Source of the DNA: Candidatus Dojkabacteria bacterium
Lineage (GTDB): Bacteria; Patescibacteriota; Dojkabacteria; B142; OLB20
Reading direction: 5' to 3'
Assembly: GCA_046753765.1 (NCBI GenBank)
Contig: JBHHUN010000002.1
Location: 1,570-65,569, forward strand
DNA: 64,000 nt
Below, piece by piece: positions 8,937 to 61,669 of this stretch. How positions within the stretch are numbered: position 1 is the stretch's first letter; every line of letters begins with the position of its first letter. Under the pieces are notes generated by a model, which was given only the letters and a program-made list of their open reading frames with translations, did not search any database and was not told the origin of the DNA. The position numbers and the translations under genes are program-made.

Positions 8937-10078
8937 TGAATAAGGTTCACATAATTGGAAGCAGTATGACGCAGTTTGGTGAGTTGTGGGATATGGATAT
9001 AGCCGATCTTGCCTACACAGCCGCCAGTGATGCACTTGCTGACTCTGGGATTGATGTTGCTGAAGTCGATGCGATTATAGTGGCAAATATGGAGGGAGGT
9101 AGTTTTTCAGGCCAGGACCACATTGGAGCACTACTTTCGGGTGATCTAGGACTAAACGTCCCCGCACTGAGAGTCGAGGCAGCGTGTGCCTCTGGATCTA
9201 TCGCAATTAATCAGGCTTTTCTGGGAATTCTTTCTGGTGAGTACACAACAGTACTTGTTGTTGGTGTAGAGAAGATGACAGATGTGAGCGGTGCAGGCAT
9301 CACAAAAGTGCTAGCGAGGGCGTCTGATGAAGACAAAGAGGCATTCTGGGGAGTAACTTTCCCTTCATTGTACGCGATGATGGCAAGAGAGTACATGCGC
9401 AGGTACAGGGTTACACGATCAGATCTGGCAGGAGTCTCTGTTAAAAATCATGTTAATGGACAGCTCAATGAGAAGGCACAGTTTCAAAAGGAGATCTCAG
9501 TTGAAGATGTTTTAAATGCACCTGATGTTGCTGAACCACTGGGGCTTCTGGATTGCTCTCCCGTCAGCGATGGTGCCGCTGCCATCTTACTCTCCTCTCG
9601 AAAAAGCCAGGTGGAGCTTGTGGCCTCGAAAGTAGCAACCGATAAGGTCGCTCTACACGATCGGGAATCTTTCACATCTATTAAAGCGTCTAAAATCGCT
9701 GCGGAATCTGCGTACAACGCTGCCGGAATTTCTTCAGACGACATTGATGTAGCTGAAGTGCACGACTGTTTCAGTATTGCAGAAATAATTGCATACGAAG
9801 ACCTTGGTTTTGCAAATCAAGGAGAAGGGGTAAAACAACTGGCAATGGGAAAATTCAATAGAGATGGAAAGTTGCCGATCAATACATCAGGAGGACTGAA
9901 AGCGTGTGGACATCCTGTTGGTGCCACCGGCGTAAAGCAGGCTCACGAAATTTATCAACAACTTGCGGGAAAAGCTGGAAGACGACAGTTGAAAACAAAA
10001 CTAAACCACGGCTTGACGCACAATGTAGGTGGCAGTGGCGGCACCAGCGTAGTAAATATTTTTAAGACAAACACCTAA
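8936..10078 (+). CDS. acetyl-CoA acetyltransferase (archaeal-type thiolase)
   Basis: Thiolase fold with an active-site Cys in VEAACASGSIAI and C-terminal catalytic residues (GHPVGATG). Confidence 0.8.
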   Translation: MNKVHIIGSSMTQFGELWDMDIADLAYTAASDALADSGIDVAEVDAIIVANMEGGSFSGQDHIGALLSGDLGLNVPALRVEAACASGSIAINQAFLGILSGEYTTVLVVGVEKMTDVSGAGITKVLARASDEDKEAFWGVTFPSLYAMMAREYMRRYRVTRSDLAGVSVKNHVNGQLNEKAQFQKEISVEDVLNAPDVAEPLGLLDCSPVSDGAAAILLSSRKSQVELVASKVATDKVALHDRESFTSIKASKIAAESAYNAAGISSDDIDVAEVHDCFSIAEIIAYEDLGFANQGEGVKQLAMGKFNRDGKLPINTSGGLKACGHPVGATGVKQAHEIYQQLAGKAGRRQLKTKLNHGLTHNVGGSGGTSVVNIFKTNT

Positions 10079-16341: not shown

Positions 16342-17460
16342 TTACAGAAAGTAAATCCAGACCCCTAAAAGCATACTGGCGATAGCAAAAAGCCAAAAAC
16401 GCATGACTACTTTCTCTTCGCTCCAGCCAAGTAACTCAAAGTGATGGTGTAAGGGTGCCATTCTGAAAAATCTACGACCAAAGAACCTTCTATATATGCT
16501 CTGAATTACAACACTAGCAATTTCAATTACAAACGGTAACCCAAAGGCTAAAAGAAGAATTGGCTTGTCGAGTGCAAAAGCAGCCGTTGTGAGCAGTGAT
16601 CCAAGCGCGAAAGCCCCAACGTCTCCCATCTGTACCCTGGCAGGCGCAACATTAAAATACAGGTACATCACAAGCGAACCGATAACAGTCCCTGTTAGTA
16701 AGGCCATTGAAGTGTTTCCCTCTAGTGTAGCAATTACAAGAAACCCACCAAATGCAGGTAGTAATATTCCTGCCGAGAGTCCATCCATTCCATCAGTTAT
16801 GTTGACTGCATTTGTCATGGCAACAAGTGTAAACGTAGCAAAAGGAATTACTAAAAACGAAATATTGATTCCTCCAATAAATGGCAACCAGACAAATCCT
16901 GGATCGAGTACTACACCTGAAGTAAAAAACCAGTAACCCAACAATAACCCAAGTGCCGTTTGTACCAGGAGTCTCTCGTGAGCGAACAAACCTTTTCCGG
17001 GGTGTGACTCAAATACATGGACAAGTCTCGAGTAAAATGCCCATGGGTAGGTCAATACCAGTTTGAAGCGCATGAACTGGCTTTTGTGAACCGCTATAAG
17101 CTTTCGCACTCGACTAAGTGGCCTAAGCTTCCGCGCTTTGCCATAAATATTCAACACATCGTCAATTCCCCCAAGTAAGGCGGAAAGAACAAATATCACT
17201 ATAGGAATATCGGTGAAAGTGTCAAAGTTGGCAATCAGGTTCATAAAAGCTATAGGAAGAATAATCATGAGCCCCCCCATAATAGGAGTGCCAGCCTTCT
17301 CTTTTCGGCTCTCTATTAATGCTGAGAAATCAACATCGAAATGGCGAACAATATCAAACTTGTATAGGAGGGCAATCAGGGGAAAGGCGATCACCCCAGT
17401 AAGCAGTGTCGAAAAAATGATGTACGTAATCACCTGAAACGTGTCTATCCCATTAATCAT
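16342..17460 (-). CDS. mraY: phospho-N-acetylmuramoyl-pentapeptide transferase
   Basis: Polytopic membrane protein with the DD motif (LGGIDDVLNI) and the MraY-specific APLHHHFELLGW...VVMRFW motif. Confidence 0.8.
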   Translation of the reverse strand: MINGIDTFQVITYIIFSTLLTGVIAFPLIALLYKFDIVRHFDVDFSALIESRKEKAGTPIMGGLMIILPIAFMNLIANFDTFTDIPIVIFVLSALLGGIDDVLNIYGKARKLRPLSRVRKLIAVHKSQFMRFKLVLTYPWAFYSRLVHVFESHPGKGLFAHERLLVQTALGLLLGYWFFTSGVVLDPGFVWLPFIGGINISFLVIPFATFTLVAMTNAVNITDGMDGLSAGILLPAFGGFLVIATLEGNTSMALLTGTVIGSLVMYLYFNVAPARVQMGDVGAFALGSLLTTAAFALDKPILLLAFGLPFVIEIASVVIQSIYRRFFGRRFFRMAPLHHHFELLGWSEEKVVMRFWLFAIASMLLGVWIYFL

Positions 17461-19303: not shown

Positions 19304-20350
19304 TTACCTGTTTGACAACATATATCTTGTACCTCTGCCCTTCCCCTCTACCTTGAGCAATTTCTTTTTCACAAGGGCGTTCAGGTCACGAAATGCAGTC
19401 ATTGTAGAGACGTCCATCATCTGAACGTAGTCTTCTCTTTTAACCGTCGGAATAGTTTGCAAGTAACGTAGTATCTTAAGCTGTCGTTTGTTTAAGTCAA
19501 GAAATGGCTGTTTGCTCGATCTGCTTTCACTTGGTTTATTTCGGTTGACTTCATCTTTTGTGTCTACCATGTCGTTTGCCAGATTACGTATGAACCTCTC
19601 AAGCCAAAGGGTCAGGTCATCATTGTGTTCAATTGCTTTTGACCAAGCCTCAAGATACTCATCTTCATAGATGTCAAAGTTTCTGGTTGATGGAAGAAAT
19701 GTTTTATCTAGATATCCATTTTTCTGAAGTAAGTAATCAGCTACTGAGATGACCGTGAGTTTATTAGCAACAATAAATGGCGAGACACGGATAAGCCTGT
19801 AAAGAAGTACCCCTACCCTAATCACATTGTGTACTTTTGCAATTGATGACTTATACCAGTCGAGCACCTGGAGCAGTTCGTCTTGGATAGCTATTGCTTC
19901 GATTCTGTTGTCCCTGAGATTTACCCAATTATCCAAAATGACATCAATGTCTTCCCCACCTGTTCGAAATTTTGACTCCCACGTCTCTTTCCAGTCAGAG
20001 AGGAGTATCTTGTTTAAATGGAGTAAAATGTTGATATCTATGTCGACGTAGGTGTCTGTGACGTTCGAACGAATGAATTCTATGCAGTTTCTGAAGTTAT
20101 TTAAAATGATACCCCTTGCGTCATCTGTCTTAACCTTTCGACCCTCAGCTGCTTTTTCAGCGTCTTTCAGTGTAAGCTCGACACCAATAATGTGTGCAAG
20201 GTGGAACATGTTTACAGCTTTGGATCTCAGCTGTAGATTTGTGGTTGCCTGAGTTGTTAGTTGCTGGCTCTCTATCTGACTTTTCTCAACCTCCAGCTTC
20301 ACCAGATTCATTACCATACGATTAGTGAGTGTGTATTTTGGTTCGTACAT
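19304..20350 (-). CDS. Fic/DOC-fold protein with degenerate catalytic motif and C-terminal winged-helix domain
   Basis: The region VLLYRLIRVSPFIVANKLTVISVADYLLQKNGY aligns to the Fic core (IHPFxDGNGRtaRll..L...Gy), but His, Asp, both Gly and Arg are replaced. The C-terminus ...KVEGKGRGTRYML is wHTH-like. Confidence 0.45.
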   Translation of the reverse strand: MYEPKYTLTNRMVMNLVKLEVEKSQIESQQLTTQATTNLQLRSKAVNMFHLAHIIGVELTLKDAEKAAEGRKVKTDDARGIILNNFRNCIEFIRSNVTDTYVDIDINILLHLNKILLSDWKETWESKFRTGGEDIDVILDNWVNLRDNRIEAIAIQDELLQVLDWYKSSIAKVHNVIRVGVLLYRLIRVSPFIVANKLTVISVADYLLQKNGYLDKTFLPSTRNFDIYEDEYLEAWSKAIEHNDDLTLWLERFIRNLANDMVDTKDEVNRNKPSESRSSKQPFLDLNKRQLKILRYLQTIPTVKREDYVQMMDVSTMTAFRDLNALVKKKLLKVEGKGRGTRYMLSNR

Positions 20351-22080: not shown

Positions 22081-22153
22081 AGCTGGAGGTGAGGATCGAA
22101 CTCACGACCTGTCCCTTACGAAGGGAATGCTCTGCCAGCTGAGCTACTCCAGC
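22081..22153 (-). tRNA. tRNA-Thr (CGT)
   Basis: Reverse complement GCTGGAGTAGCTCAGCTGGCAGAGCATTCCCTTCGTAAGGGACAGGTCGTGAGTTCGATCCTCACCTCCAGCT. The anticodon loop TCGTAAG gives CGT; CCA is not encoded. Confidence 0.8.
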
Positions 22154-22186: not shown

Positions 22187-22372
22187 CTATTTCTCTTCTT
22201 CGATCATCTCCAGTAAATGATCACTTCCGTCTTTTCCTGTGACCTCATATTCGATTCCGCAAAATTCGCATTCAACCACATCGCCCTCTTTCAAGTCATC
22301 TGCCAGCTTCGTGTCGTTTTTACACTCCTGACAAGTTAGACTATGATTCTGTGTTTTCGTTTGCTCACCCAT
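22187..22372 (-). CDS. LysW-like zinc-ribbon mini-protein (amino-group-carrier-protein-like, non-canonical C-terminus)
   Basis: 61 aa. CQEC...N17...ECEFCGIEYEV mirrors LysW/ArgW (CPxC ... ECxxCGAELEV) with an acidic C-terminal tail, but it ends EEEK rather than EDWGE. Confidence 0.4.
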   Translation of the reverse strand: MGEQTKTQNHSLTCQECKNDTKLADDLKEGDVVECEFCGIEYEVTGKDGSDHLLEMIEEEK

Positions 22373-22401
22373 AAGTTATCAATTAATATGTAAAATCAAG
22401 C

Positions 22402-23340
22402 GTGCACCACGTTATAGTATGCAAGCTTATGAACAGTATATGGAATTATAACAAAATTGTAGATGTAGGTGAGCCATTTCGGCTAACACTTGGTGAAGGA
22501 TTCACACCGGTCACCCATATCGAAGTTGACGGGCTTGAGATCTGCCTGAAACTCGAAGACCGTAATCCTACGGGATCCTTCAAAGACAGAAGTCTGGCGT
22601 ACCAGCTATCCCATTATATAAGCCAAGGTAAGTGTAGCTTTGTAATTTCCTCGTCTGGGAATGCAGCGATCAGCGCCGTCGCATATGCAAATAAGGCTGA
22701 TGTAAAGTTGGACGTATTTGTTTCAACTAAAATTAACAAGGAGAAGTCAGGGATTCTTAAGGGTTTTGTCGACAAAAAGGTTGCGATCCACAAGGTCCAA
22801 CGACCTAAGTCTGAAGCAATTCAGTTTGCAAAAAAAAACGAAGCTGTGAACCTGCGTGGATCAACGGATGAGCACGCTGTAACCGGCTTCAAAACTATTG
22901 CTTATGATCTTTACGAGCAGTGTCCTGACTTAGACAGTGTATTTGTACCCTGTAGTAGCGGAACCGGATCAACGGGGATAAATAAGGGATTTGAAGAGCT
23001 GGATAAAGATGTGCAGCTTCATGTCTGCCAGACTACACGAATTCATCCCATAGCATCTGAAACAGATCAGGACTTCAAACCATCTAAGACCAGTCTGGCC
23101 GACGCAATCACTGACAGAGTAGCTAAACGCAAAAAAAGCCTACTGGAGTGTGTCGCTAAGTCGGGTGGTGCCGGTTGGGTGCTCAGCGACAGCGATCTCC
23201 ATAAGGCTCAATCTGCCATGGAAAAGGGTGGACTAGATGATATCTCGTATAACTCTCTTCTCTCTGTGGCAGGAATACTGAAAGCCAGAGAGTCAGGACA
23301 TGAGTTTGTAAAACCTGTAGCTGTTATTAGCGGAAGATGA
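22402..23340 (+). CDS. threonine synthase-like PLP-dependent (fold type II) enzyme
   Basis: LGEGFTPV...EDRNPTGSFKDRSLAYQLS carries the ThrC-type PLP-lysine motif (PTGSFKDR). It is short (about 300 aa; the start may be the internal MNSIWNY at 22429). Confidence 0.6.
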   Translation: MHHVIVCKLMNSIWNYNKIVDVGEPFRLTLGEGFTPVTHIEVDGLEICLKLEDRNPTGSFKDRSLAYQLSHYISQGKCSFVISSSGNAAISAVAYANKADVKLDVFVSTKINKEKSGILKGFVDKKVAIHKVQRPKSEAIQFAKKNEAVNLRGSTDEHAVTGFKTIAYDLYEQCPDLDSVFVPCSSGTGSTGINKGFEELDKDVQLHVCQTTRIHPIASETDQDFKPSKTSLADAITDRVAKRKKSLLECVAKSGGAGWVLSDSDLHKAQSAMEKGGLDDISYNSLLSVAGILKARESGHEFVKPVAVISGR

Positions 23341-23849
23341 TCTTAACAGTTTTTTATCTTGCCCTATTAGTTCTAATTTCGATCTATGGATTCTACTGGG
23401 TATACGGAGTCTTTAAGGGAGCGCCATATTATCCCAGTAATAAACATGCCATCGCACAGATGCTCGAGTTTGCTCAGCTAAAACCAGAGAGCAAAGTGGC
23501 TGAGCTTGGGTCAGGGGATGGTCGTCTTGCGATTAAGTTGGCAAAAGCCGGTTTCGAGGTAACCGCATATGAGATAAACCCCATTTTTACAATCATTACA
23601 AGGCTCATAGCAATGCTCAGGAGAGTGCCAAACTTAAAGATCAAACAGGAGGACTTCTTAAAAGCTGATCTGAGTAAGTATGACATCGTTGTAACTTACC
23701 TTTATCCGGGGATTATGCAAAAGCTTGAAAAAAAACTGTATAGTGAGTTGAAATCTGGGTCTTTGGTAATAACTAATACATTCAGTATGCAAAAGAAAAA
23801 ACCGCTAAAGAAGGGGGCGTCTAAGATTTTACTCTACAAAATTGACTGA
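23337..23849 (+). CDS. class I SAM-dependent methyltransferase with N-terminal TM helix
   Basis: Motif I VAELGSGDGRLAIKLAKAGFEVTAYEINP with an N-terminal hydrophobic segment. Its start overlaps the upstream stop. Confidence 0.6.
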   Translation: MILTVFYLALLVLISIYGFYWVYGVFKGAPYYPSNKHAIAQMLEFAQLKPESKVAELGSGDGRLAIKLAKAGFEVTAYEINPIFTIITRLIAMLRRVPNLKIKQEDFLKADLSKYDIVVTYLYPGIMQKLEKKLYSELKSGSLVITNTFSMQKKKPLKKGASKILLYKID

Positions 23850-25287
23850 CGATCAAACTGAAAAACTTATCGATAAAGTAAACCAACATCTAGGGGGTGA
23901 TGCTTACTTCTATCTGAGTAATGACCCCGAAAGGGGCTTAGGATTAGAGGGTCTGATTGATAACCTGCACCTGGTTCACATTGATCAAACGCAGCTGCTT
24001 CCCTACTTCAAAAGCAATGACATCAACTATTTTAGCCTTGAAGAGATACTTGGAACAGTGGGTTCGGTTTACAGAAGCTCAATCAAATTGATTAATCACG
24101 ACGAATTCAGGCGCTATTTCGCTGAACACAAAGGAAACGACAACTATTTCCAGACTTTCAAAATTTCACCTGCGTTTTCAAAAAGTGTGTCTAGTCTAGA
24201 GGGGGAACTCCTAAATACGTCTGCAGAGCTCAATAGAATGTTTGAAAACAAGCTAAGTCAGTATGAACAGATTAGAGACCTGGATATTAAAATGCCGAGA
24301 ACTGGCATTCTGAAGCTAGAAGATGCACTCTACCACGCACTGACAGGAACTTATGGATCTCCATTTATCGTTCAGTTTGACCGTGGACACACAGGAGGGG
24401 GCACCTTTTACATTGATTCGGAACCCAGGTTTGCTGAATTAAAAGAGCAGTTTCCAAAGCGTGAAGTCCGTGTCGCTGAATATATCTCAGGAAGACCGTA
24501 TACTCTGAACGCCTGTGTATCCAAAAAAGGAATATTTATGGGGGGGCTAAGCTTTCAAATCACGGGTGCTCCGGAGCTTACCTCTGACAGAGGGGCTACG
24601 GTTGGTAACGACTTTTCCTATAGAGACGGTATTACCCCTGAAGTACTCCTGAAAATTCAGCAGTTTGTGAAGTTAATCGGTGAAAAGATGCTCTCTTCTG
24701 GGTATCTTGGGTTGTTTGGGGTTGACCTGATTGTTCATAAAGATGATGTGAGGATAATAGAGATCAACGCCCGTCAACCAGCATCAATTCCTATGCATAC
24801 GAAAATTCAACTAGGACAAGGTCAGGTACCATTGGCACTCATCCATCTTCTTGAATTTATGGGGCTGGAGTATGATCTTGACGTAGAGGGATACAATGAG
24901 GTTGCATTTGCACCATCAGCGTACTCACAGATCTTCCTGAGAGCGAAGTCAGAATCCAGGCTTACTTCGCAGGTGAAGATGGGTATTTACAGGCTTCTTA
25001 GTGATAACAGCGCAATTGATCGTTTAAGTGGTGAGGTAGTAGAAGGTACGATATTTCTTGACGAAGACAGAGATAAACCGCTTATGTTTCAAAGTAATGG
25101 ATATACAGTTAGCGATCTTGACGAAAACCCCGGAATGTTGGTCATGGCACCAGTAAAGGGGCGAATAGTTAAAAAAGGAAGAGAGCTTGCTCGAATTCAG
25201 ATTGGACAGCAGGCAGTCGATAACAACGGTGAGCTTGCGCCGTGGATTCCAGAGGCGTTAAATGCAATTAACAATTACCAAATATAA
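23842..25287 (+). CDS. ATP-grasp family ligase with about 150-aa N-terminal pre-domain (substrate unknown)
   Basis: Central and C-terminal ATP-grasp signatures (PFIVQFDRGHTGGGTFYI; EYISGRPYTLN; GLFGVDLIVHKDDVRIIEINARQ). It overlaps the neighbouring genes at both ends. Confidence 0.65.
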   Translation: MTDDQTEKLIDKVNQHLGGDAYFYLSNDPERGLGLEGLIDNLHLVHIDQTQLLPYFKSNDINYFSLEEILGTVGSVYRSSIKLINHDEFRRYFAEHKGNDNYFQTFKISPAFSKSVSSLEGELLNTSAELNRMFENKLSQYEQIRDLDIKMPRTGILKLEDALYHALTGTYGSPFIVQFDRGHTGGGTFYIDSEPRFAELKEQFPKREVRVAEYISGRPYTLNACVSKKGIFMGGLSFQITGAPELTSDRGATVGNDFSYRDGITPEVLLKIQQFVKLIGEKMLSSGYLGLFGVDLIVHKDDVRIIEINARQPASIPMHTKIQLGQGQVPLALIHLLEFMGLEYDLDVEGYNEVAFAPSAYSQIFLRAKSESRLTSQVKMGIYRLLSDNSAIDRLSGEVVEGTIFLDEDRDKPLMFQSNGYTVSDLDENPGMLVMAPVKGRIVKKGRELARIQIGQQAVDNNGELAPWIPEALNAINNYQI

Positions 25288-26066
25288 TGAAACAGATTCT
25301 GAAGCTACCAAAAGCAGCCTACGATGTGATTGAAAACTACAAGTGCCTTAATATAGGTGGAAAAAAGATCCGCTCACCGTATTTTATGAATGTAAAGAAG
25401 CAACGCGGTGGACTAAGGGTGATGGTTGGCAAAGGATCCCCAGGCGAAATAGAGCGGGAGGTTCAGGTTATGGCGCAGCTGAAGGGTTTTGATTTAGCTG
25501 GTGCGGACGAGCAACAGATTCGAAAATTCATGCAAGACAGGGATATTGGCGTTGATTGCTCCGCTTTCACTGTACACGTGATAAGCAAGATACTCGAAGA
25601 GCAGGAGCATCACAATCCGGCGGCATACCTTAAGTTTAGGAATAATAGTCTTATCAGCAGAATAAGGAGGTATTTCAGGCCGGTTGAGAACATTAGTGCG
25701 GACCTGCTAACAAACGAAGACAATACCGAAAAAGTCATAGATCTCAACGATATCAAGCCTGGAGATTTTATAAGGCTTAAGGGTAAGCAGAGAAACTCTG
25801 ACCATATACTGATTATTTCAAAGGTAGTGCTTACAGATGATGTTATACAACAGTTTGAATACGTACATTCAACAAGAGAATATGGTGACGAGAATGGTAT
25901 CGTCACTGGAAGGGTTGAAGTTTCTCATCCTGACGGAGAGCTGAAAGATCAGAAGTGGGACGAAGAGAGGCAGTACAACAACTTGTTGAAGGATTATGAT
26001 GACAACGGAGTTAGAAGGCTTAGAAAGGTAACGATTGATTTTGACACTGAGAATGTGGCTGATTGA
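25287..26066 (+). CDS. NlpC/P60-like (papain-fold) cysteine hydrolase/amidase
   Basis: Candidate catalytic Cys in GVDCSAFTVHV and His in KPGDFIRLKGKQRNSDHILIISKV, which matches the PGDLvFF...HVGIYiG block of the C40 family. Confidence 0.45.
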   Translation: MKQILKLPKAAYDVIENYKCLNIGGKKIRSPYFMNVKKQRGGLRVMVGKGSPGEIEREVQVMAQLKGFDLAGADEQQIRKFMQDRDIGVDCSAFTVHVISKILEEQEHHNPAAYLKFRNNSLISRIRRYFRPVENISADLLTNEDNTEKVIDLNDIKPGDFIRLKGKQRNSDHILIISKVVLTDDVIQQFEYVHSTREYGDENGIVTGRVEVSHPDGELKDQKWDEERQYNNLLKDYDDNGVRRLRKVTIDFDTENVAD

Positions 26067-26179
26067 TTAGTAGCTCGCACGAGCGAAATAATTCCAGAGA
26101 TTGACCGATATAAGAGGCATTGTTTGTGTGAATTCTATATAATTGTGTTATAATAAGTCATATATCGTTAATATATACA

Positions 26180-27592
26180 ATGCCTAACCCAGATATACCT
26201 AATAATGGTGATACGAAGGATCTGTTACCTTCACCTTCAGCAAAAGTGTACACATTAGTTCATTCTCAGCAGGAAGCTTCTCCTATGGGAGCGGAGAATG
26301 CATCATTTCATGGCGGGATAGGACCATATACTGTCTCATGTGGTACAGATCGCGGGCGAAGGCGTTTTAATCAAGACGCATTTGAGTGGACCGAACTTAC
26401 TCTATCGACTCCAGGCACCGAAGCGCCGACATACGCACAAGTTCTATCACTTCTTGATGGTGCTGGAGGTCATTTTGGTGGTGAGCTTGCAGCAGCTATC
26501 GCTTCGTCTGTATTTCATGCAGAAACAATTAAAAATCCCAATGTGGAATCTGTAAGGGCCAATATGCTTGCTGCTCACAATGCAGTACGCAGTGTCAAAG
26601 ACGCTATACATGGGGCAGTAGTAAAAACAATAGAAGATACAATGCTTGGACTAAATGAAGAAGCAATAGCGCATCTATTTACAGTTGATCAAAGTAAGAC
26701 TGGATTTCATCCAAAACTGACCTCCGTATACAATATTGCAGCCGCGATGATAACTCAATCTCGCGATCTCAAGGTTAGGGAGCTTCCGGAGGACTCAGAT
26801 GACCACGCTCAAATTGTGCAGCGATTAACTAAGAACTATCCCAATCTTGTCGACAGAGGAAAACAGTATTTGAAGAATATCTATGAACAAGTCATACCCT
26901 ATATCTTTGAGCAGATAGAGTTGACACGAGCAGACTTCGAGGCTCAGCTCAAGGGCCCTCATCGAGAGATCATACTAGAACACATAGATAATTACCTGAC
27001 GCTTCAAACTGAAGCAAACGGGGTGTCAGAGGAAGAATACTTCGCTAGTCTCGTGAACCCATTAGAAGGCAACACATTAGATGGCATGTGCGCCGCAGGT
27101 GTAGCACTAATACAGATAGAAGATCATGTCTCCATACAGCATTCGGGTGATGTGCGGGCATACGTATTTCGAGCAAAAAAAGGCGAAGTTCACAGATGCA
27201 CCACTGATAACACAGCAGGTGCATACATCAGACAGTACCCATGTCCAGCAGTCGATCTTGTTGATGAAAAAGATAAGTACGATCCATATGATCCTGCCGC
27301 TGTCGAAGATGCTGCGAAAAAATACGATCACGTATTGATGGGGGCAGTGGGCTCTAACGATCCAGGGCTAAGAAGTGTTGATGTTGTCCTAGAACCTGGT
27401 GATAGACTGGTACTCAGCTGCGATGGTGCACATGAGTTCATCGATGAAGAGGAGCTCAAGCAGATACTGCAAAATGCCACCTCAGTTGAAAAGGCTCAGA
27501 GGCAACTCATTGAAGCGTCCCTCCGAAACGATACGACAGACAACACTACAGTCATTGTCACGCAATACTCCCCAGAACCGGAAGCTGTTTAG
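26180..27592 (+). CDS. PP2C-family Ser/Thr protein phosphatase (long form with insert)
   Basis: GTDRGRRRFNQDAF (TDxGxxRxxNED), LLDGAGGHFGGELAA (DGMGGH) and C-terminal GDRLVLSCDGAHEF. Confidence 0.7.
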   Translation: MPNPDIPNNGDTKDLLPSPSAKVYTLVHSQQEASPMGAENASFHGGIGPYTVSCGTDRGRRRFNQDAFEWTELTLSTPGTEAPTYAQVLSLLDGAGGHFGGELAAAIASSVFHAETIKNPNVESVRANMLAAHNAVRSVKDAIHGAVVKTIEDTMLGLNEEAIAHLFTVDQSKTGFHPKLTSVYNIAAAMITQSRDLKVRELPEDSDDHAQIVQRLTKNYPNLVDRGKQYLKNIYEQVIPYIFEQIELTRADFEAQLKGPHREIILEHIDNYLTLQTEANGVSEEEYFASLVNPLEGNTLDGMCAAGVALIQIEDHVSIQHSGDVRAYVFRAKKGEVHRCTTDNTAGAYIRQYPCPAVDLVDEKDKYDPYDPAAVEDAAKKYDHVLMGAVGSNDPGLRSVDVVLEPGDRLVLSCDGAHEFIDEEELKQILQNATSVEKAQRQLIEASLRNDTTDNTTVIVTQYSPEPEAV

Positions 27593-38076: not shown

Positions 38077-39900
38077 TTACAAAGTGATGTTAAATTTTCG
38101 CATCCATAATTCTGTGTTGAGAATGCGCCAGAATACCATTGCATCTCCATTAATCTTACCACTCTTCCAGGCCTTGAACGCTTTGACTACAGTATCTTGT
38201 TGAAATAACCCTGAGGAGAACGCTTTGTCTGATCCCAGGAGCTCTTCAAATCTATTCGATTTTGATCTCATCCACCTGGCCTCGGGTGTTGTAAATCCAA
38301 TTTTTTTTCTTCTTGATCTAATTGATTCTGGCATAAGGCCCTTCATTGCATTCCGGTAAACAAAGCGATTCCAACCATGTTTTATCTTTTGATCAGCAGG
38401 AAGACCAAGGACATATTCTACAAACTTGTGATCAAGGAGGGGTACTCTGGTTTCAATCGAAAACGCCATCGCATTTCTGTCTTCGTACCTCAGAATATTT
38501 GGAACACTGTATGAGCTTACATCCTTCCAAAGCCTCATGTTCAGATTTGATTCTTGATTGTAGGTAAAATTTCTTTTTTCGAAAGCACCCTTTTCGAGAA
38601 ACTGCCCCATGCTCAGAGCATTATTCCTGCTAAGCTTCGCTTGAAGCACTCTTTTGAAGAATGGAAAATATAGATCCGCCCCTCGTAGTAGCTCGTAGAG
38701 TCCTCGAAGACCTCTTCCGGCAGGAAGTGCAGTTTTAAAGTACGATGCAAAGTAAGGTATGTAACCTGCAAAAAGCTCATCGCCACCCTGACCTGATAAT
38801 ATGACTTTTATGTACTTGTGAGCTTCTCGCATTACACTGTAACTTGCGTATGGTGCTGACGAAATAGTAGGCTCTTCCTGAGTATAGATCCAATCATTAA
38901 TCTCGCTCCAGAACCCTTCAACGGTCGGCTCAACAATGTGTTTCTCTGCGCCAGTATACTGGATAGCCTCGTCAATATATCTGCTTTCATCGATGGGGTC
39001 ACCTGGGTATACTGCCGAAAAAGTTAGAAGCCCTTTGGTGTGCAAATCCTGGCCATCATCACGGAGTTTCTTCGTCATCGAGAGAACGCCGGTGGAGTCC
39101 AAACCCCCGGAGAGGGACACGGCGATCGGAACATCAGAGATGAGGTGTAACTTCATCGTTTCTTCAAATATCTCTCTGAGTTCGTCAGCGTACACAGAAT
39201 CTTTTTTGGTGCTTTTAAACGACGTATTTACCTCTGGCTTCCAATAGCTTTCGAGTCGCTCAATCTTTCTATTAGAGTTTACTACCATGAGGTGACTTGG
39301 GGGGAGACGTAAGATGCCCGAAAAAAAGGTTTCAGGCCTGTGATCGTGAATGCGGAATCTCAGATATTCACTCAGTACTTCTCTATTTACTTTTGGCGAA
39401 ATATACCCAGTTTTCAAAAGAGCCTTTATCTCCGATGCAAAAAAGATCCCGTGGCTGTTGTTAAAGTAGTACAGGGGCTTTATTCCAAGCCTGTCTCTTG
39501 CAATAAATAGTCTATTGCGTTTGAGGTCATAGATAATAAAAGCAAACATACCCCTGAGTCTTTTTACAACATCAATACCCCACTCTTCGTACCCGTGCAC
39601 TACAGTCTCTGTATCACTGTGGTCAGTACTGAACTTGTGACCAAGCTGTTCGAGTTGTTTCCACAGCTTCTGGTAGTTGTATATTTCGCCGTTAAATACG
39701 ATAGCAACTGTCTTATCCTCATTCCAGATAGGTTGCCATCCGTCTTCTGGGTCGATAATAGCGAGCCTGCGCATCCCAATTGAGAACTTCTGGTCCGTAT
39801 GGATGCCTTCACCATCAGGTCCGCGATGAATTATCTCTCCGAGCTGTTTCTGGAGCAGTTTGTCGTCTTGTTTTGCCGCAAATCCTACTATTCCACACAT
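38077..39900 (-). CDS. asnB: asparagine synthase (glutamine-hydrolysing)
   Basis: The true start MCGIVGF (Ntn Cys2) is at 39900 and the PP-loop is SLSGGLDSTGV. The ORF track extends it 11 codons upstream. Confidence 0.8.
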   Translation of the reverse strand: MCGIVGFAAKQDDKLLQKQLGEIIHRGPDGEGIHTDQKFSIGMRRLAIIDPEDGWQPIWNEDKTVAIVFNGEIYNYQKLWKQLEQLGHKFSTDHSDTETVVHGYEEWGIDVVKRLRGMFAFIIYDLKRNRLFIARDRLGIKPLYYFNNSHGIFFASEIKALLKTGYISPKVNREVLSEYLRFRIHDHRPETFFSGILRLPPSHLMVVNSNRKIERLESYWKPEVNTSFKSTKKDSVYADELREIFEETMKLHLISDVPIAVSLSGGLDSTGVLSMTKKLRDDGQDLHTKGLLTFSAVYPGDPIDESRYIDEAIQYTGAEKHIVEPTVEGFWSEINDWIYTQEEPTISSAPYASYSVMREAHKYIKVILSGQGGDELFAGYIPYFASYFKTALPAGRGLRGLYELLRGADLYFPFFKRVLQAKLSRNNALSMGQFLEKGAFEKRNFTYNQESNLNMRLWKDVSSYSVPNILRYEDRNAMAFSIETRVPLLDHKFVEYVLGLPADQKIKHGWNRFVYRNAMKGLMPESIRSRRKKIGFTTPEARWMRSKSNRFEELLGSDKAFSSGLFQQDTVVKAFKAWKSGKINGDAMVFWRILNTELWMRKFNITL

Positions 39901-39937
39901 ACTGGTCATAATAGCATAAATGAAGCCCCGCACAATT

Positions 39938-49571: not shown

Positions 49572-50005
49572 TTTAATTGATGCTCACTGCGTGCGTATTC
49601 TTTAAATAACTTGGCGGTAAGCGTTCTGTTTACTGTCGATGCCATGTACCCCTCAATAAAGCCCTGTGCCTCCGGTGCTGACACTTCGCTCAGCTCTGCA
49701 AAATTTGGGCTAAGTTTCTGCAACTCAATTTTTGTGTCAAGTTCACTGTGCTTTAGGATTAATTTGATGTACTTGAGGCTTTCGCCAAACGACTGGATCT
49801 CAGCTCGTTCTACCTCAATAATATGGTCATCTCCTACAAGACCAAACATACTGAACTGCCACTCTTTCGTATCTGTCCAGACCCTTATTACATCTTTGTT
49901 GTCTCCACTTCCAGTTCTGACCCTCACACCAAACTCGAGGTCGTTAATGACTTTGTGCAGAAATACACTTTTTGAAAGTTTGAAATCCTGTAAGGTCGCT
50001 CTCAT
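49556..50005 (-). CDS. hypothetical protein, within nrd operon
   Basis: 149-aa ORF overlapping its neighbours at both ends; no motif recognised. Confidence 0.35.
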   Translation of the reverse strand: MRATLQDFKLSKSVFLHKVINDLEFGVRVRTGSGDNKDVIRVWTDTKEWQFSMFGLVGDDHIIEVERAEIQSFGESLKYIKLILKHSELDTKIELQKLSPNFAELSEVSAPEAQGFIEGYMASTVNRTLTAKLFKEYARSEHQLNWLEY

Positions 50006-52455: not shown

Positions 52456-53925
52456 TTGATATACTTGAAAAAACGTCAGATAAATCTAATGTCGCAAAAT
52501 TGGGTACATGTAATAGGCGTAGCAGGTGTCACTACCTCGGGCGTGGCAGTGATGTTTAATCGTTACGGGTGGAAGGTCACAGGTTCTGACAAAGGTTTTT
52601 TCCCTCCTGTCAGCGATTATCTTAAGGACAATGGGGTCGAGATACTTCCGGGTTTCAAACCAGACCGACTCACAGACGAGACAGGTCAGCACCCAGACGT
52701 TGTGGTGATACAGGGAACAAAGGGCAAAGAGAACCCCGAGTTGATCGAAGCTACGAAGCTGAAGCTTAACATCAAGACCTATCCGGAGATACTTGAACAC
52801 TATGTAATCAAAAAGGGACGCTCAATTGTTATTGCTGGAACCTATGGAAAAACAACAATAACTGCAGCCCTCGTTCAGATGTTTGCTGTCTCAAATAGAC
52901 CAATCAGTTATATGATTGGAGGAATCAGTATCAACACAGGATTCACAGTCGTCCCACTCCGGGAAGAATCGATGTACTCAGTGGTTGAAGGAGATGAGTT
53001 TATAACATCGCTTTCTGACAAGCGTTCGAAATTTTTCTATTATCACCCTGATTTTCTCATCCTAAACGCAGTCAGCTGGGAACACCCAGATGTATTTACT
53101 AATGAAGCGGAGTACATTAAGAACTTCAAGAAGCTGGTAAGATCCATTCCACCAAAGGGATTAGTAGTTGCAAACGCCAATGATAGAAATGCAGTAGATG
53201 TGGCTACTGAATCAAGGGCGAGGGTTATATACTACTCTATCAATCCAGATGAAGCACAAGCATCTCCACATTGGTACCTCAATCCTGCTTCACATTCACT
53301 GCCAACATTCGTCCGCAAGCCGGAGGATGAAGACGGTGTGGTAATCCCATACGAAAAGCAGATCATAGGTGAGTTTAACGAGGAAAACCTGCTGGCTGCT
53401 GCCGCTATGGCATCTGAGCTGGGTGTCGACTCAAAAAGTATTACCGAAGCAATAAAAGACTTCCGAGGCATACGACGACGTCTTGAGATCCGATATCAAA
53501 GTAATAAAATAATAGTAATTGATGACTTCGGCAGCTCACCCCCCAAAGCAAAAGGGGCGCTGGCAGCGCTTCGTAAAGATTTTCCAAGAGCTGAGATCAC
53601 AATCGTTTTTGAACCATCATCTGGAAACAGAGTTGCGACTGCACTAGCACTTTACGATGGCGTCTTCACACAGGCAGATAAACTCGTCTTTCCAAGATTC
53701 ACAAAACTTCCAAAAACATCAAAAGACAGATTTGATGGCGACGAGCTGGCTGTTTATCTTGCCAAATCAGGTGTTCAGGTCAGTTACATCGAGGATGATG
53801 CCAATCTTGTTAGACAACTCATAAAGATTGCAAAGAAAAAGACAAAAGTACTTAAGATCATCTGTTTTATGGGCAGCCATAGCTTTCGGGGTATGATAAA
53901 TCAGCTTATAGAGGAAATAAAGTGA
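52456..53925 (+). CDS. Mur ligase family protein (Mpl/MurC-like UDP-N-acetylmuramate ligase)
   Basis: N-terminal HVIGVAGVTTSGVAVMFNRYGWKVTGSDKGFFPPVS (Mpl-like FPP.S), then the central Mur ligase ATP-binding GTYGKTT and a C-terminal domain. Confidence 0.75.
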   Translation: MIYLKKRQINLMSQNWVHVIGVAGVTTSGVAVMFNRYGWKVTGSDKGFFPPVSDYLKDNGVEILPGFKPDRLTDETGQHPDVVVIQGTKGKENPELIEATKLKLNIKTYPEILEHYVIKKGRSIVIAGTYGKTTITAALVQMFAVSNRPISYMIGGISINTGFTVVPLREESMYSVVEGDEFITSLSDKRSKFFYYHPDFLILNAVSWEHPDVFTNEAEYIKNFKKLVRSIPPKGLVVANANDRNAVDVATESRARVIYYSINPDEAQASPHWYLNPASHSLPTFVRKPEDEDGVVIPYEKQIIGEFNEENLLAAAAMASELGVDSKSITEAIKDFRGIRRRLEIRYQSNKIIVIDDFGSSPPKAKGALAALRKDFPRAEITIVFEPSSGNRVATALALYDGVFTQADKLVFPRFTKLPKTSKDRFDGDELAVYLAKSGVQVSYIEDDANLVRQLIKIAKKKTKVLKIICFMGSHSFRGMINQLIEEIK

Positions 53926-61006: not shown

Positions 61007-61669
61007 TTAACTTTTCACCAGTAATTTCTTTAGCACACTTAAGTCACCTTGCCAATCCTTGCCGTCAAACCATTGTAACCCCGAGAACTGAAGCTTATAT
61101 TTATCTGACTCATTTTTGACGGAGCCAAGATATATGTACTCAAGTTTCATTTCTGCAGCAAACTCAATAGCTCCAATCATCATGCTCATCCCCAGATTTG
61201 CAGGATATAACTCGAACTCGTAGAATGGATAGGCGTAATGAATAATCGAGTTGTTTTGGTAGCAGATCGCATAACCTACAGTACTTTCCAGACTGTACTC
61301 GAGAAGCATGTTGAAGCTTGTCGAGTCGTCATCCTTTAAAATAGCCCTCAACTTCGAAGCACTAAATGTGCCTACTCCAAATTTCTTAGTATAGAATTCC
61401 TTTCCAAGTCTATGGATGTTCCAATCATATTCATCCTCAGTTAGAGGAAGACTATTTGATTTAACTTTAAGCTCGGGAAACTTCTGTGTTACGCGCCTGT
61501 TCTCGCTCGACAACTGAAAGCGGGAAAGCTCTACTCGAAGGGATCTGGTCTGGAACATATCACCCTTGCCTGTCCTGCCAAATACGTATCCCTGTGAGTA
61601 TTGCTCTGTTATCGTCTCCGGTTCATAACTGTCTAAAGTTGTTTTATCCCAGGTGAGATAGTCATGCAT
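61007..61669 (-). CDS. aminoacyl-tRNA--protein transferase-like (ATE/Bpt family, tentative)
   Basis: The C-terminal block LEYIYLGSVKNESDKYKLQFSGLQWFD resembles the YLGY...KxxYKxxF motif of Arg/Leu-tRNA protein transferases. Confidence 0.35.
   Translation of the reverse strand: MHDYLTWDKTTLDSYEPETITEQYSQGYVFGRTGKGDMFQTRSLRVELSRFQLSSENRRVTQKFPELKVKSNSLPLTEDEYDWNIHRLGKEFYTKKFGVGTFSASKLRAILKDDDSTSFNMLLEYSLESTVGYAICYQNNSIIHYAYPFYEFELYPANLGMSMMIGAIEFAAEMKLEYIYLGSVKNESDKYKLQFSGLQWFDGKDWQGDLSVLKKLLVKS

Follow-up and report, generated by a model that had tools for sequence, protein, structure and literature searches.

A conserved zinc-ribbon, PLP-enzyme, ATP-grasp and hydrolase gene set among the peptidoglycan genes of Patescibacteria: a possible LysW-like carrier cycle on a terminal lysine

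The stretch of DNA analysed here (the window, 64,000 nucleotides) belongs to Candidatus Dojkabacteria, in agreement with the CPR-like host suspected in an earlier note on the same sequence. All open reading frames are present at the coordinates previously assigned to them; the features relevant to this work, with the evidence for each in brackets, are the following.

22187..22372, reverse strand: ZnR, a 61-aa zinc-ribbon protein of the LysW family (Pfam Zn_ribbon_LysW)
22402..23340, forward strand: PLP, a fold-type II PLP enzyme of the threonine-synthase lineage (Pfam PALP, ThrC structures)
23337..23849, forward strand: MT, a 170-aa class I SAM methyltransferase with an N-terminal TM helix (Pfam RrnaAD, NCBIfam)
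23842..25287, forward strand: AG, a 481-aa ATP-grasp ligase (Pfam ATP-grasp_3, AF2, Foldseek)
25287..26066, forward strand: HYD, a 259-aa predicted papain-like (NlpC/P60-CHAP-like) Cys hydrolase (motifs, weak NLPC_P60)
26180..27592, forward strand: PP2C (ORF list)
16342..17460, reverse strand, context: MraY (NCBIfam mraY, 172 bits)
52456..53925, forward strand, context: MurC-type Mur ligase (Pfam Mur_ligase N, M and C domains)
61007..61669, reverse strand, context: ATE_C-like gene (arginyltransferase/Fem-like aminoacyl-tRNA transferase; Pfam ATE_C, 28.2 bits)

Direct reading of the junctions upheld the tight four-gene operon described before: PLP, MT, AG and HYD are translationally coupled, through overlaps of 4 nt (ATGA, PLP/MT), 8 nt (TTGACTGA, MT/AG) and 1 nt (TAATG, AG/HYD). 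ZnR and PLP are 29 nt apart if PLP starts at the GTG at 22402; alignment with orthologues points to the ATG at 22429 as the true start, which would widen the gap to 56 nt. The core of the gene set is formed by four genes, ZnR, PLP, AG and HYD. The methyltransferase, formerly counted as a member of the system, is dispensable, as it is missing from about half of the loci (found in 24 of 53 with full flanks, and absent from all Paceibacteria-type loci), and is an accessory, lineage-specific and optional member; its matches to an Erm-type rRNA methyltransferase (the best NCBIfam match, 43.6 bits), to the NCBIfam archaeal protein-lysine N-methyltransferase (41.8 bits) and to Pfam RrnaAD (34 bits) all lie below cut-off. 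PP2C, of which none of the 80 genome-scan loci holds a homologue, is not syntenic and, as had been supposed, unrelated to the operon.

A word-based protein search with AG returned 330 homologues, and scanning the species-representative genomes of GTDB gave 426 matching stretches. Synteny was counted over the 53 Patescibacteria loci with full flanks found through AG, at least 41 of which carry ZnR, PLP, AG and HYD together. An independent search based on ZnR led to eight distinct loci, seven of them with AG and HYD within 6 kb (HYD being recognised there from size and position only). The co-occurrence check proposed earlier thus reveals a conserved functional set in which ZnR is present at orthologous loci; its recurrence in dozens of independent loci places the arrangement far beyond chance, and it is kept across many classes of genome-reduced Patescibacteria.

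ZnR scores 36.8 bits against Pfam Zn_ribbon_LysW (GA 27), its cysteines C14, C17, C35 and C38 are invariant, and a profile of 26 orthologues finds solved LysW chains as its best matches (5k2m_E, 3e-6; 3wwl_A, 3.8e-6; 3vpb_E). A motif check of the orthologues found no EDWGE tail. By sequence, ZnR is a genuine LysW-family member with a non-LysW tail, as the earlier note had it. The acidity of the tail, also described there, is real (...MIEEEK in the window, where the protein has a pI of 4.3), but the invariant feature, missed at the time, is the C-terminal Lys. This residue closes 39/39 complete syntenic orthologues, 12/12 insertion-bearing variants and 120/120 of the best 120 among 897 profile-search homologues (stand-alone proteins of 51–87 aa), that is, 171/171 complete homologues examined, the window's own ZnR not counted. 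Since the residues before it vary (DEGK, EEEK, SEMMK, TVLEK), the terminal Lys is itself the feature under selection in ZnR, the counterpart of the terminal Glu of LysW. By analogy, we propose that ZnR may be a carrier protein.

In most lineages the set lies among cell-wall genes: murB, mraY, murC, murD, murE, murF, murA, murG, ftsW, FemX-like and ATE-like genes are found as neighbours, and at least one MraY, Mur or Fem/ATE-like gene lies in the flanks of 28/53 full-flank loci. The typical order is AG-HYD-MraY-ATE-MurC-ZnR|PLP. MraY occurs in 27 of these 53 loci, its median offset placing it just 3' of HYD, and in many other lineages it is the gene directly after HYD. The window's ATE-like gene belongs to a cluster whose members stand between MraY and MurC in 18 loci. 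The window's MurC-type ligase is 52% identical to the gene after HYD at L011, L015, L018 and L023; its orthologues score 240–266 bits against NCBIfam murC, and they lie directly 3' of HYD in sister Dojkabacteria and abut ZnR in Paceibacteria-type loci. This embedding was overlooked when a free-standing metabolite pathway was first favoured. Such a stand-alone secondary-metabolite or RiPP-like pathway, or a Pup-like tagging system with ZnR as the tag, is now very unlikely. ATP-grasp and papain-fold peptidase pairs are reportedly found in peptide-modification systems (Iyer et al. 2009), and a small protein with a conserved tail could serve as precursor or tag; on the other hand, the set is conserved in many classes inside mur/mraY clusters, lacks an exporter, an immunity gene or a variable core peptide, gives no PADLOC matches, and ends in a Lys that is not activatable like the C-terminal Gly or Glu of Pup/ubiquitin-type tags.

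The PLP enzyme matches Pfam PALP (128 bits) and, as its best NCBIfam model, ThrC, at 128.6 bits against a cut-off of 421; ThrC structures also head the matches of the family profile (2zsj, 2.4e-32). Its best matches by sequence and profile are ThrC and beta-replacement enzymes like it, such as cysteate synthase; the PLP Lys, the Asn loop and an S..A..K region near the C-terminus are common to them, although PLP scores far below all ThrC equivalog cut-offs. The catalytic residues are kept (the Lys of SFKDR and the SSGN loop), whereas the phosphate-binding NSxNPxR and the GNAGN loop of ThrC are replaced by LRGSxD and SSGT, respectively. By its sequence, PLP is a ThrC-derived enzyme in which the ThrC phosphate-binding motifs have been lost. 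A Ser precedes the GN of the Asn loop in this family, as in serine and aspartate racemases, and racemases are among the PDB matches of the profile (6lut, 2e-19; 5ybw, 2e-18).

AG scores 42.7 bits against Pfam ATP-grasp_3 and gives a confident AF2 model (pLDDT 93.5), whose top Foldseek matches in the PDB are PurK, PurT and biotin carboxylase (E 1e-17 to 1e-15, TM 0.53–0.59); Ddl, RimK and LysX are missing from the top 50. All 481 aa align to these structures, and AG is a biotin-carboxylase/PurK/PurT-like ATP-grasp enzyme rather than a housekeeping Ddl or CarB. Its catalytic residues, E307, N309, R311 and the Gly-rich loop, are conserved. The N-terminal region of about 150 aa was rightly seen as different from RimK, Ddl or GshB, but it is no unusual extra domain: these 125–150 aa form the ordinary pre-ATP-grasp domain of that branch. 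A non-orthologous replacement, in which AG would perform the Ddl function or make another stem-peptide bond and PLP would be a racemase giving the D-amino acid, is improbable in our judgement, even though AG lies beside murB/murC, the usual position of ddl, MurF-like ligases are present in the clusters, no Ddl-like sequence was found in the window or the 80 genome-scan loci (with a DdlB query), and PLP has the racemase-like features just described. The fold of AG and the lack of Ddl among its 50 best PDB matches speak against it, and it gives no role to ZnR or to HYD.

In HYD, C91 and H173 are invariant, P158-G159-D160 is conserved and position 194 is H, N, E or Q (H194 in the window), so the Cys...PGD...H arrangement reported earlier is real and conserved. 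Its reading as an NlpC/P60 amidase holds for the motif and is marginal for the family: the Pfam NLPC_P60 score is 18.2 bits, below the GA of 23, and the best Foldseek matches, a CHAP domain and the E. coli Gsp amidase, are weak, none reaching E<=1e-3. An N-terminal domain of about 85 aa is basic (pI 9.9 in the window). By these motifs HYD is a very divergent cytoplasmic hydrolase of the papain/NlpC-P60/CHAP-like type, its Cys-His-(His/Asn/Glu/Gln) triad intact. NlpC/P60 enzymes typically cleave gamma-D-Glu-Lys/DAP bonds, and Patescibacteria are epibionts with little amino-acid biosynthesis. Both facts favour a salvage or remodelling role, in which HYD would act as a YkfC-like gamma-D-Glu-diamino-acid endopeptidase on scavenged host muropeptides, AG would re-ligate the fragments, and the ZnR tail (-Glu-Lys-COOH) would mimic the end of the stem tripeptide. 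The -E-K or -G-K ends of ZnR and the adjacent Mur ligase, with nearly equal scores for Mpl (239 bits) and MurC (266 bits), are also consistent with it. We nevertheless consider this role quite improbable, given the marginal resemblance of HYD to NlpC/P60; moreover, a recycling transporter, an LD-carboxypeptidase and an epimerase are not conserved near the loci, and PLP is left without a role.

HYD, the functional partner of AG, adjoins it in 49/53 loci, and one fused protein combines both in 23 of 149 family representatives (about 15%) and also at L064 and L071; by these fusions, the tie between AG and HYD is closer than that of either to ZnR. PLP and ZnR are adjacent on opposite strands in 47/52 loci. 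At L087, ZnR-PLP is present with no AG-HYD within 10 kb, at L054, L059 and L071 AG occurs, alone or with HYD, but ZnR-PLP does not, and in Paceibacteria-type loci MraY, the ATE-like gene and MurC stand between the pairs. ZnR-PLP and AG-HYD are thus separable modules, and their co-localisation may mean that they serve one pathway, peptidoglycan, without acting on one substrate. Two independent soluble-enzyme modules in one pathway are a less likely but serious explanation: AG-HYD, as a bifunctional ligase/amidase or an amidotransferase-like pair, would act directly on a nucleotide-linked precursor such as UDP-MurNAc-peptide, where it could add, amidate or take off a branch or a terminal residue, while PLP would supply an unusual or D-amino acid with ZnR only as its structural or regulatory subunit. 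The genes that separate the pairs, the position of ZnR beside PLP and not AG, and the many loci in which murB and mraY immediately flank AG-HYD agree with it, as do the AG-NUDIX fusions at L078 and L083 and the NUDIX gene between AG and HYD at L081; the fusions hint that the substrate is linked to a nucleotide, as in UDP-MurNAc-peptide. Synthetase-glutaminase pairs (CarAB, MurT/GatD) are also typically fused or adjacent, like AG-HYD. However, amidotransferases are not known to have a papain-fold glutaminase subunit, the ZnR-PLP pair is inverted at L005, L017 and L027, which puts ZnR immediately 5' of AG and on its strand, and the strictly invariant C-terminal Lys on a variable LysW-family tail is left unexplained.

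The explanation that we put forward, tentatively and as plausible rather than probable, is a Patescibacteria-specific LysW-like carrier cycle on the terminal Lys, feeding peptidoglycan-precursor synthesis. All LysW proteins characterised so far carry their cargo on the C-terminal tail, with an ATP-grasp ligase for loading and a hydrolase for unloading (LysW/LysX/LysK, ArgW); the carrier role of ZnR is suggested by its LysW homology together with the ligase and hydrolase encoded alongside, and the AG-HYD fusion is the pattern of a pair making and breaking one amide bond, as in the Gsp synthetase/amidase. Around the observed families, catalytic residues, gene set, terminal Lys, fusions and mur/mraY context, we infer ZnR to be the substrate of AG and HYD, as well as the Lys atom used, the cargo and the order of steps. 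Acidic ZnR would dock onto its basic partner enzymes, presenting its flexible tail; median pI values are complementary for ZnR (4.1), PLP (8.9) and HYD (9.2), whereas AG is not basic (6.3; 5.2 in the window). AG would form an amide bond at the Lys via an acyl-phosphate intermediate, most likely acylating the epsilon-amine with an amino-acid carboxylate, or alternatively re-adding Lys to the preceding Glu or Gly. PLP might then modify the tethered group, by beta/gamma-replacement with the tail amine as nucleophile or by chemistry at the alpha, beta or gamma carbon of the tethered amino acid; fold-type II PLP enzymes normally need a free alpha-amino acid, which restricts the possible tethered chemistry. 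HYD would finally cut the amide, freeing the product and regenerating the carrier.

LysW/ArgW systems combine LysW with a LysX/ArgX ATP-grasp, LysZ/Y/J and LysK, and are known from Thermus, Sulfolobus and Thermococcus, with AmCP in Streptomyces. LysW/ArgW and ZnR are small acidic zinc ribbons of one Pfam family, with a flexible tail and an invariant last residue, and their genes accompany those of an ATP-grasp ligase and a hydrolase. In LysW the reactive group is the gamma-carboxylate of the EDWGE Glu, whereas in ZnR an amine, or Lys itself, would react; the kinase, reductase and aminotransferase of LysW systems are absent from the gene set, where the partner is a ThrC-like PLP enzyme, and the context is peptidoglycan instead of Lys/Arg biosynthesis. 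Against the carrier cycle, AG is biotin-carboxylase/PurK-like and not of the RimK/LysX type, and HYD is a papain-fold Cys enzyme and not a LysK-type M20 metallopeptidase, so that the analogy is one of function and not of homology. E. coli GspSA and trypanothione synthetase resemble AG-HYD in joining an amide synthetase and a CHAP/papain-fold Cys amidase, fused or adjacent, but GspSA has the reverse domain order (AG is N-terminal and HYD C-terminal here), the fold of AG comes closest to those of PurK, PurT and biotin carboxylase, and Gsp systems have neither carrier protein nor PLP enzyme.

Protein-bound amino-acid synthesis is known from CysO-CysM-Mec+ (M. tuberculosis) and HcyS-type systems. 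There, the carrier C-terminus enters a fold-type II PLP enzyme and attacks the aminoacrylate, and a hydrolase frees the amino acid, a likeness to the proposed cycle; nonetheless, their ThiS/ubiquitin-fold carrier with a Gly-Gly thiocarboxylate, E1-like adenylase and JAMM protease have no homologues here. In the tubulin tyrosine ligase/vasohibin cycle and RimK-S6, an acidic C-terminal tail (-EE) receives an amino acid from an ATP-grasp enzyme and loses it again to a papain/transglutaminase-like Cys peptidase. In scaffold-peptide (pearlin) systems, the C-terminus of a peptide is the site on which an amino acid is assembled before its release by cleavage, and the enzymes used are tRNA-dependent and LanB-like. 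All three show superfamily-level homology at closest and have no peptidoglycan link. The accessory ATP-dependent stem-peptide modifiers Aslfm (a D-aspartate ligase of the ATP-grasp type, with aspartate racemase), MurT/GatD and MurD2/MurL share the genomic and functional context inferred for AG-HYD-PLP-ZnR. They act at the Lys epsilon-NH2 or D-Glu with a racemase, epimerase or glutaminase partner; no sequence relationship to them was detected, and none has a carrier protein like the proposed ZnR.

The literature searches made found no publication describing this conserved gene set; the terminal Lys, the AG-HYD and NUDIX fusions and the mur/mraY setting are new findings. The embedding in mur/mraY clusters points to a role in the synthesis or tailoring of cell-wall building blocks, and the product of the proposed carrier cycle would be an amino-acid building block or branch for the neighbouring Mur ligases or Fem/ATE-like transferases.

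Six open reading frames make up the locus, and all those claimed by the earlier note, a reading of the sequence alone, were found in the window:

22187-22372, minus strand, LysW-family zinc-ribbon protein (ZnR), 61 aa
22402-23340, plus strand, ThrC-like PLP enzyme (PLP), 312 aa
23337-23849, plus strand, SAM methyltransferase (MT), 170 aa
23842-25287, plus strand, ATP-grasp ligase (AG), 481 aa
25287-26066, plus strand, papain/NlpC-P60/CHAP-like Cys hydrolase (HYD), 259 aa
26180-27592, plus strand, PP2C phosphatase (PP2C), 470 aa

Direct reading of the window gives the gene junctions ATGA, TTGACTGA and TAATG; the four plus-strand genes from PLP to HYD are thus translationally coupled. The divergent gap between ZnR and PLP measures 29 nt; the alignment of orthologues suggests that PLP begins at the ATG at 22429, which would widen it to 56 nt. 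No regulatory RNA or riboswitch was found in this gap, Rfam yielding tRNAs only, and its promoter- or terminator-like sites are no more than shuffled expectation. A Candidatus Dojkabacteria (WS6) MAG encodes proteins 100% identical to AG, to HYD and to ZnR, so the guess of a "CPR-like" genome was right. Directly downstream of ZnR lies a tRNA-Thr(CGT) gene (22081-22153, minus strand), often together with tRNA-Gly(CCC). Within the Dojkabacteria sub-lineage of the window it stands beside ZnR in most of the 38 scanned loci, L002-L036 among others, and in no scanned locus of another lineage; because it is syntenic within Dojkabacteria only, a functional link to the module was set aside, and the arrangement is probably lineage synteny. 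Its position beside a ThrC-like gene and near Fem/ATE-like aminoacyl-tRNA transferases is still curious; staphylococcal Fem-type transferases use dedicated tRNA-Gly species. On the upstream side, the module in 20 Dojkabacteria loci has a conserved neighbour, a Fic/SoFic-like protein whose C-terminal domain is a winged helix (19304-20350, minus strand, in the window; PADLOC SoFic 1.3e-12); elsewhere it is absent.

With the AG alignment as query and one genome per GTDB species scanned, AG relatives were found encoded in 426 stretches, of which 80 loci were kept (related loci carry L-numbers below). By gene content these appear to be Patescibacteria (Dojka-, Uhr-, Magasanik-, Colwell- and Nomurabacteria, and Paceibacteria). 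The record labels of several differ (e.g., "Gammaproteobacteria" or plain "bacterium"); L056, L061-L074 and others are titled "uncultured Gammaproteobacteria" or "Candidatus Saccharibacteria", and these public taxonomy labels look unreliable, since gene content and protein similarity are Paceibacteria/Dojkabacteria-like. Among the 53 loci flanked by 3 kb or more on each side, HYD is present in 49, a ZnR in 45 and PLP in 43, with all four of ZnR, PLP, AG and HYD in at least 41; the association seen in the window is thereby borne out for these four genes. The methyltransferase, which the earlier note had counted within the set, occurs in 24 of the 53 and was dropped as a core member, being missing from about half of the loci. 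In 47 of 52 loci, PLP and ZnR are direct neighbours encoded on opposite strands. An independent test starting from ZnR homologues recovered AG and a HYD-sized gene within 6 kb in seven of eight distinct loci, where HYD was called by size and position, with a faint NLPC_P60 match also in one locus. The phosphatase had been suspected to be unrelated to the operon, and indeed no homologue recurs in any of the 80 loci, so that it was rejected as a module member; it resembles Stp1/IreP at a sub-threshold 74.9 bits, spread over three stretches, and an alpha-helical segment of roughly 250 aa is apparently inserted between its N-terminal and C-terminal PP2C parts. Source databases name the module proteins "hypothetical", "ATP-grasp domain-containing", "C40 family peptidase", "LysW" or, wrongly, "sulfonate ABC transporter". 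An anti-phage defence system was also considered and discarded, PADLOC giving no match to the core proteins.

The most informative new observation on the module is the terminal lysine of ZnR. The four-Cys globular domain belongs to the LysW zinc-ribbon family (Pfam PF21344, 36.8 bits, GA 27), with C14, C17, C35 and C38 invariant, and the best PDB matches of a profile built from 26 orthologues are LysW chains (5k2m_E, 3e-6; 3wwl_A, 3.8e-6; 3vpb_E). The scores against the NCBIfam LysW models (40.2, cut-off 75, and 20.6, cut-off 53.2) both fall short because the tail differs: as had been read from the sequence, the EDWGE C-terminus is lacking, the tail being ...IEEEK, and every homologue examined ends in lysine. 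A profile search returned 897 proteins, of which the best 120 are stand-alone proteins of 51-87 aa, all with a terminal lysine (DEGK in 83, EEEK in 28, EEGK in 7, QEEK and EDEK in 1 each), and all 39 complete syntenic orthologues end likewise. Twelve Dojkabacteria loci encode a variant ZnR with a disordered N-terminus and an insertion of ~30 aa between the CxxC knuckles; these are also K-terminal on differing preceding residues (SDMIK, SEMMK, TVLEK, SEEEK). With the last residue constant on a varying background, the feature under selection is therefore the terminal lysine as such, mostly in acidic surroundings. In LysW the equivalent invariant residue is a terminal glutamate, on whose side chain the substrate is borne. 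An origin of ZnR as the detached N-terminal zinc ribbon of ThrC was rejected, since the PLP family aligns from residue ~5-9 of short ThrCs and misses nothing relative to them, and ZnR matches LysW.

The PLP enzyme, always found beside this LysW-family protein, contains a fold-type II PLP domain (Pfam PALP, 128 bits), with the Schiff-base lysine in an S-F-K-D-R context and both SFKDR and SSGN conserved. The closest structures to its profile are threonine synthases (2zsj, 2.4e-32; 6cgq; 2d1f), and its score against the best NCBIfam ThrC model is 128.6 bits for a cut-off of 421. In the alignments to 2zsj and 6cgq, the ThrC segment v-N-S-v-N-p-y-R-i-E-G-q-K-T is matched by L-R-G-S-x-D...G-y-K-T and the loop G-N-A-G-N by S-S-G-T; we take N-S-x-N-P-x-R and G-N-A-G-N to be the O-phosphohomoserine phosphate-binding motifs of ThrC structures. 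The sub-threshold score and the replaced motifs thus mark PLP, as judged from sequence, as ThrC-derived and not a threonine synthase. The accessory MT, a small class I SAM methyltransferase, has a single TM helix at its N-terminus; its two best NCBIfam matches, both below cut-off, are an Erm-type rRNA adenine methyltransferase (43.6 bits) and an archaeal protein-lysine methyltransferase (41.8 bits).

AG matches PF02655 (42.7 bits, GA 23.2), and its predicted model (pLDDT 93.5) places it in the biotin-carboxylase/PurK/PurT branch of the ATP-grasp superfamily, with a predicted three-domain fold. In Foldseek it superposes over its whole length on PurK, PurT and biotin-carboxylase domains (E 1e-17 to 1e-15, TM 0.53-0.59, identity 12-15%), and no Ddl, RimK/LysX or GshB chain is among its 50 best structural matches. 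The earlier note had described an N-terminal pre-domain in a layout unlike RimK/LysX, Ddl or GshB: the difference in layout stands, and the supposed extra domain is nothing unusual, since the full-length superposition identifies it as the ordinary N-domain of the branch. The residues E307, N309 and R311 of the E-x-N-x-R Mg/catalytic motif are invariant. The nearest named family, the itself uncharacterised PRK06524 "biotin carboxylase-like" (NF005096), is matched at 115.2 bits (cut-off 684) over residues 169-388 only. Membership in Ddl or another housekeeping ATP-grasp family was rejected on these structural matches and on the absence of any Dala_Dala_lig match, and a Ddl-like function of AG is a minor rival.

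The predicted HYD model (pLDDT 90.5) has no PDB structural match at E<=1e-3, its best weak matches being a CHAP domain, the E. coli glutathionylspermidine amidase, IdeS/Mac-1 and the NlpC/P60 dipeptidyl-peptidase VI. Its catalytic residues are those of NlpC/P60 (C40)/CHAP amidases, i.e., Cys, His and a polar third residue: Cys91 (in a D-C-S-G context) and His173 are invariant in the alignment, and at position 194 the sequences have H (18), N (6), E (3) or Q (2), all of which are third catalytic residues found in NlpC/P60 enzymes. Catalytic residues are accordingly intact in PLP, AG and HYD. A basic, conserved N-terminal domain of ~85 aa precedes the hydrolase (invariant P31, Y32, N35 and G48-K49-G50), and HYD is probably cytoplasmic, as no signal peptide is evident from its N-terminal sequence. 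In L020, L021, L024, L025, L028 and L033, a conserved ~102-aa multi-Cys protein (...SSRDHC.FC...) without NCBIfam match lies just downstream of HYD on the opposite strand, these loci belonging to one Dojkabacteria subgroup. The exhaustive profile search with HYD gave 785 cluster representatives, 276 of them at E<=1e-30; among the best 149, 23 are 615-772 aa long and all 23 carry an N-terminal AG domain (E 1e-59 to 1e-144), and in-frame fusions also occur at L064 and L071. Ligase and Cys-His amidase are thus often one polypeptide, and AG and HYD therefore work as a pair. The joining of an amide synthetase to a CHAP-type amidase has its classical precedent in the Gsp synthetase/amidase.

Outside the window's own sub-lineage, the module resides in peptidoglycan-precursor clusters, most commonly in the order murB(-) / AG HYD mraY ATE_C-like murC [NUDIX] / ZnR(-) PLP(+), with murA, murD, murE, murF, murG, ftsW, FemX-like or DUF1611/DgcN-like genes also nearby. 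Other lineages (L040, L041, L045, L051, L057 and L058) have the order ZnR(-) PLP AG HYD mraY, and in sister Dojkabacteria (L011, L015, L018, L023) murC and an ATE_C-like gene directly follow HYD. The corresponding genes of the window are:

16342-17460, mraY
52456-53925, murC, the same gene that follows HYD in sister Dojkabacteria
61007-61669, ATE-like gene

A 766-aa protein encoded between the last two of these genes (57495-59795, plus strand) joins a class I lysyl-tRNA synthetase domain to a B3/4 domain. The window also encodes HMG-CoA reductase, an HMG-CoA synthase-like gene and thiolase in a row (6646-10078, plus strand), an upper mevalonate pathway in a CPR bacterium of reduced genome, presumably serving the undecaprenyl-phosphate lipid carrier, and, beside an IS element transposase (rve integrase core), a glutamine-hydrolysing asparagine synthase of AsnB type (38077-40825, minus strand); AsnB homologues amidate peptidoglycan in some Gram-positives. 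Elsewhere in it, a 1668-aa ORF (44086-49092, minus strand) combines a ribonucleotide-reductase barrel in two stretches with Ham1p-like (ITPase), RNR all-alpha and TSCPD domains, an unusual composite architecture that may reflect insertion or fusion, and is followed by a second RNR gene of ordinary length (50002-51849, minus strand).

In L056, L062, L068, L079 and L085, a DUF1611/DgcN-like gene (212 bits, cut-off 480) lies between mraY and murC, where other loci have the ATE_C-like gene. DUF1611/DgcN is a D-glutamate N-acetyltransferase family, and the two genes may be different ways of carrying out a single peptidoglycan-related step. No Ddl-like gene was found by tblastn with a DdlB query in ~1.1 Mb of flanks, which is weak evidence of absence, as flanks instead of whole genomes were scanned; replacement of Ddl by the module, together with a racemase, is one of the less likely explanations. 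Two others, muropeptide salvage and a wall-unrelated metabolite or protein tag, are also less likely. No LysX-, LysZ-, LysY-, LysJ- or LysK-like genes were found in the conserved neighbourhood. A RimK/LysX-like ATP-grasp of 304 aa (L086, 12288-13202, minus strand; rimK_fam 46 bits, LysX_arch 23 bits) lies between murC and an ATE-like gene and is three genes away from ZnR, separated from it by NUDIX and murC; occurring in L086 alone, it was rejected as the partner of ZnR.

The reading that we tentatively prefer, at somewhat below even chances, is a LysW-like carrier cycle feeding Mur/Fem enzymes. AG would form an amide at the terminal lysine of ZnR, by acylating the epsilon-amine or by re-adding lysine; PLP would transform the tethered group or use the tail amine as nucleophile, for which the CysO-CysM and SbnA reactions are precedents; and HYD would free the product for Mur or Fem enzymes. 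The median pI values (ZnR 4.1, PLP 8.9, HYD 9.2) reveal a complementary charge that would fit docking, as weak evidence. The main rival, to which we give an appreciable but clearly minor chance, is that AG-HYD acts directly on UDP-MurNAc-peptide and ZnR serves the PLP enzyme only. It is favoured by the adjacency of AG-HYD to mraY/murB, by the separability of the ZnR-PLP and AG-HYD gene pairs, and by NUDIX domains fused to AG in L078 and L083. As a separate gene, NUDIX stands between AG and HYD in L081 and beside ZnR in L083, L086 and L090, the subtype being uninformative with generic MutT/NudE-level matches only.

A more daring alternative, which we regard as improbable, reverses the polarity of LysW: ZnR would be a scaffold, and the substrate would be its own genetically encoded C-terminal lysine. 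The peptide bond masks the alpha-amine of this lysine, and its epsilon-amine would attack an aminoacrylate or vinylglycine bound to the PLP cofactor of the ThrC-like enzyme, giving a diamino-dicarboxylic acid of lysinoalanine type; HYD would cut the product off and AG would re-lysinylate the scaffold. The freed amino acid could then act as a diaminopimelate surrogate for a DAP-type MurE; the MurE of these clusters keeps the EDPR motif and, in L045, passes the cut-off of the DAP-type equivalog. Most amino-acid biosynthesis is missing from Patescibacteria as a group, and this reading, if true, would mean that a new peptidoglycan cross-linking residue is made by a new carrier-templated route.

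Compared with known systems, the preferred carrier cycle shares its logic and carrier fold with LysW/LysX/LysK. Three defining features of LysW/ArgW fail, namely the EDWGE motif with the substrate-carrying gamma-carboxylate of its terminal glutamate, the RimK-type ligase LysX/ArgX (AG being biotin-carboxylase/PurK/PurT-like) and the LysZ/LysY/LysJ/LysK partners; the module is therefore not a member of the LysW pathway but a variant of carrier-type systems. It resembles the Gsp synthetase/amidase in joining synthetase and Cys-amidase in one polypeptide or operon, whereas AG has no GSP_synth homology (no Pfam match). No published description of the module was found in the literature searched on LysW, ATP-grasp, threonine synthase, Patescibacteria, peptidoglycan or PRK06524.

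Patescibacteria (CPR) account for a large share of bacterial diversity and, with tiny genomes and almost no amino-acid biosynthesis, nevertheless build peptidoglycan. As the four-gene set is kept across many of their classes and wired into mur/mraY clusters, it likely performs a non-textbook step in the synthesis of wall precursors. Should the carrier model prove true, LysW-type chemistry would extend from archaeal/Thermus lysine and arginine biosynthesis to bacterial cell-wall metabolism, with its polarity reversed (a terminal lysine amine instead of a terminal glutamate carboxylate) and with loading and unloading enzymes non-homologous to those of the LysW system. Its four small soluble proteins offer a testable handle on the chemical composition of the CPR cell wall, and the module is a possible lineage-specific target or marker.
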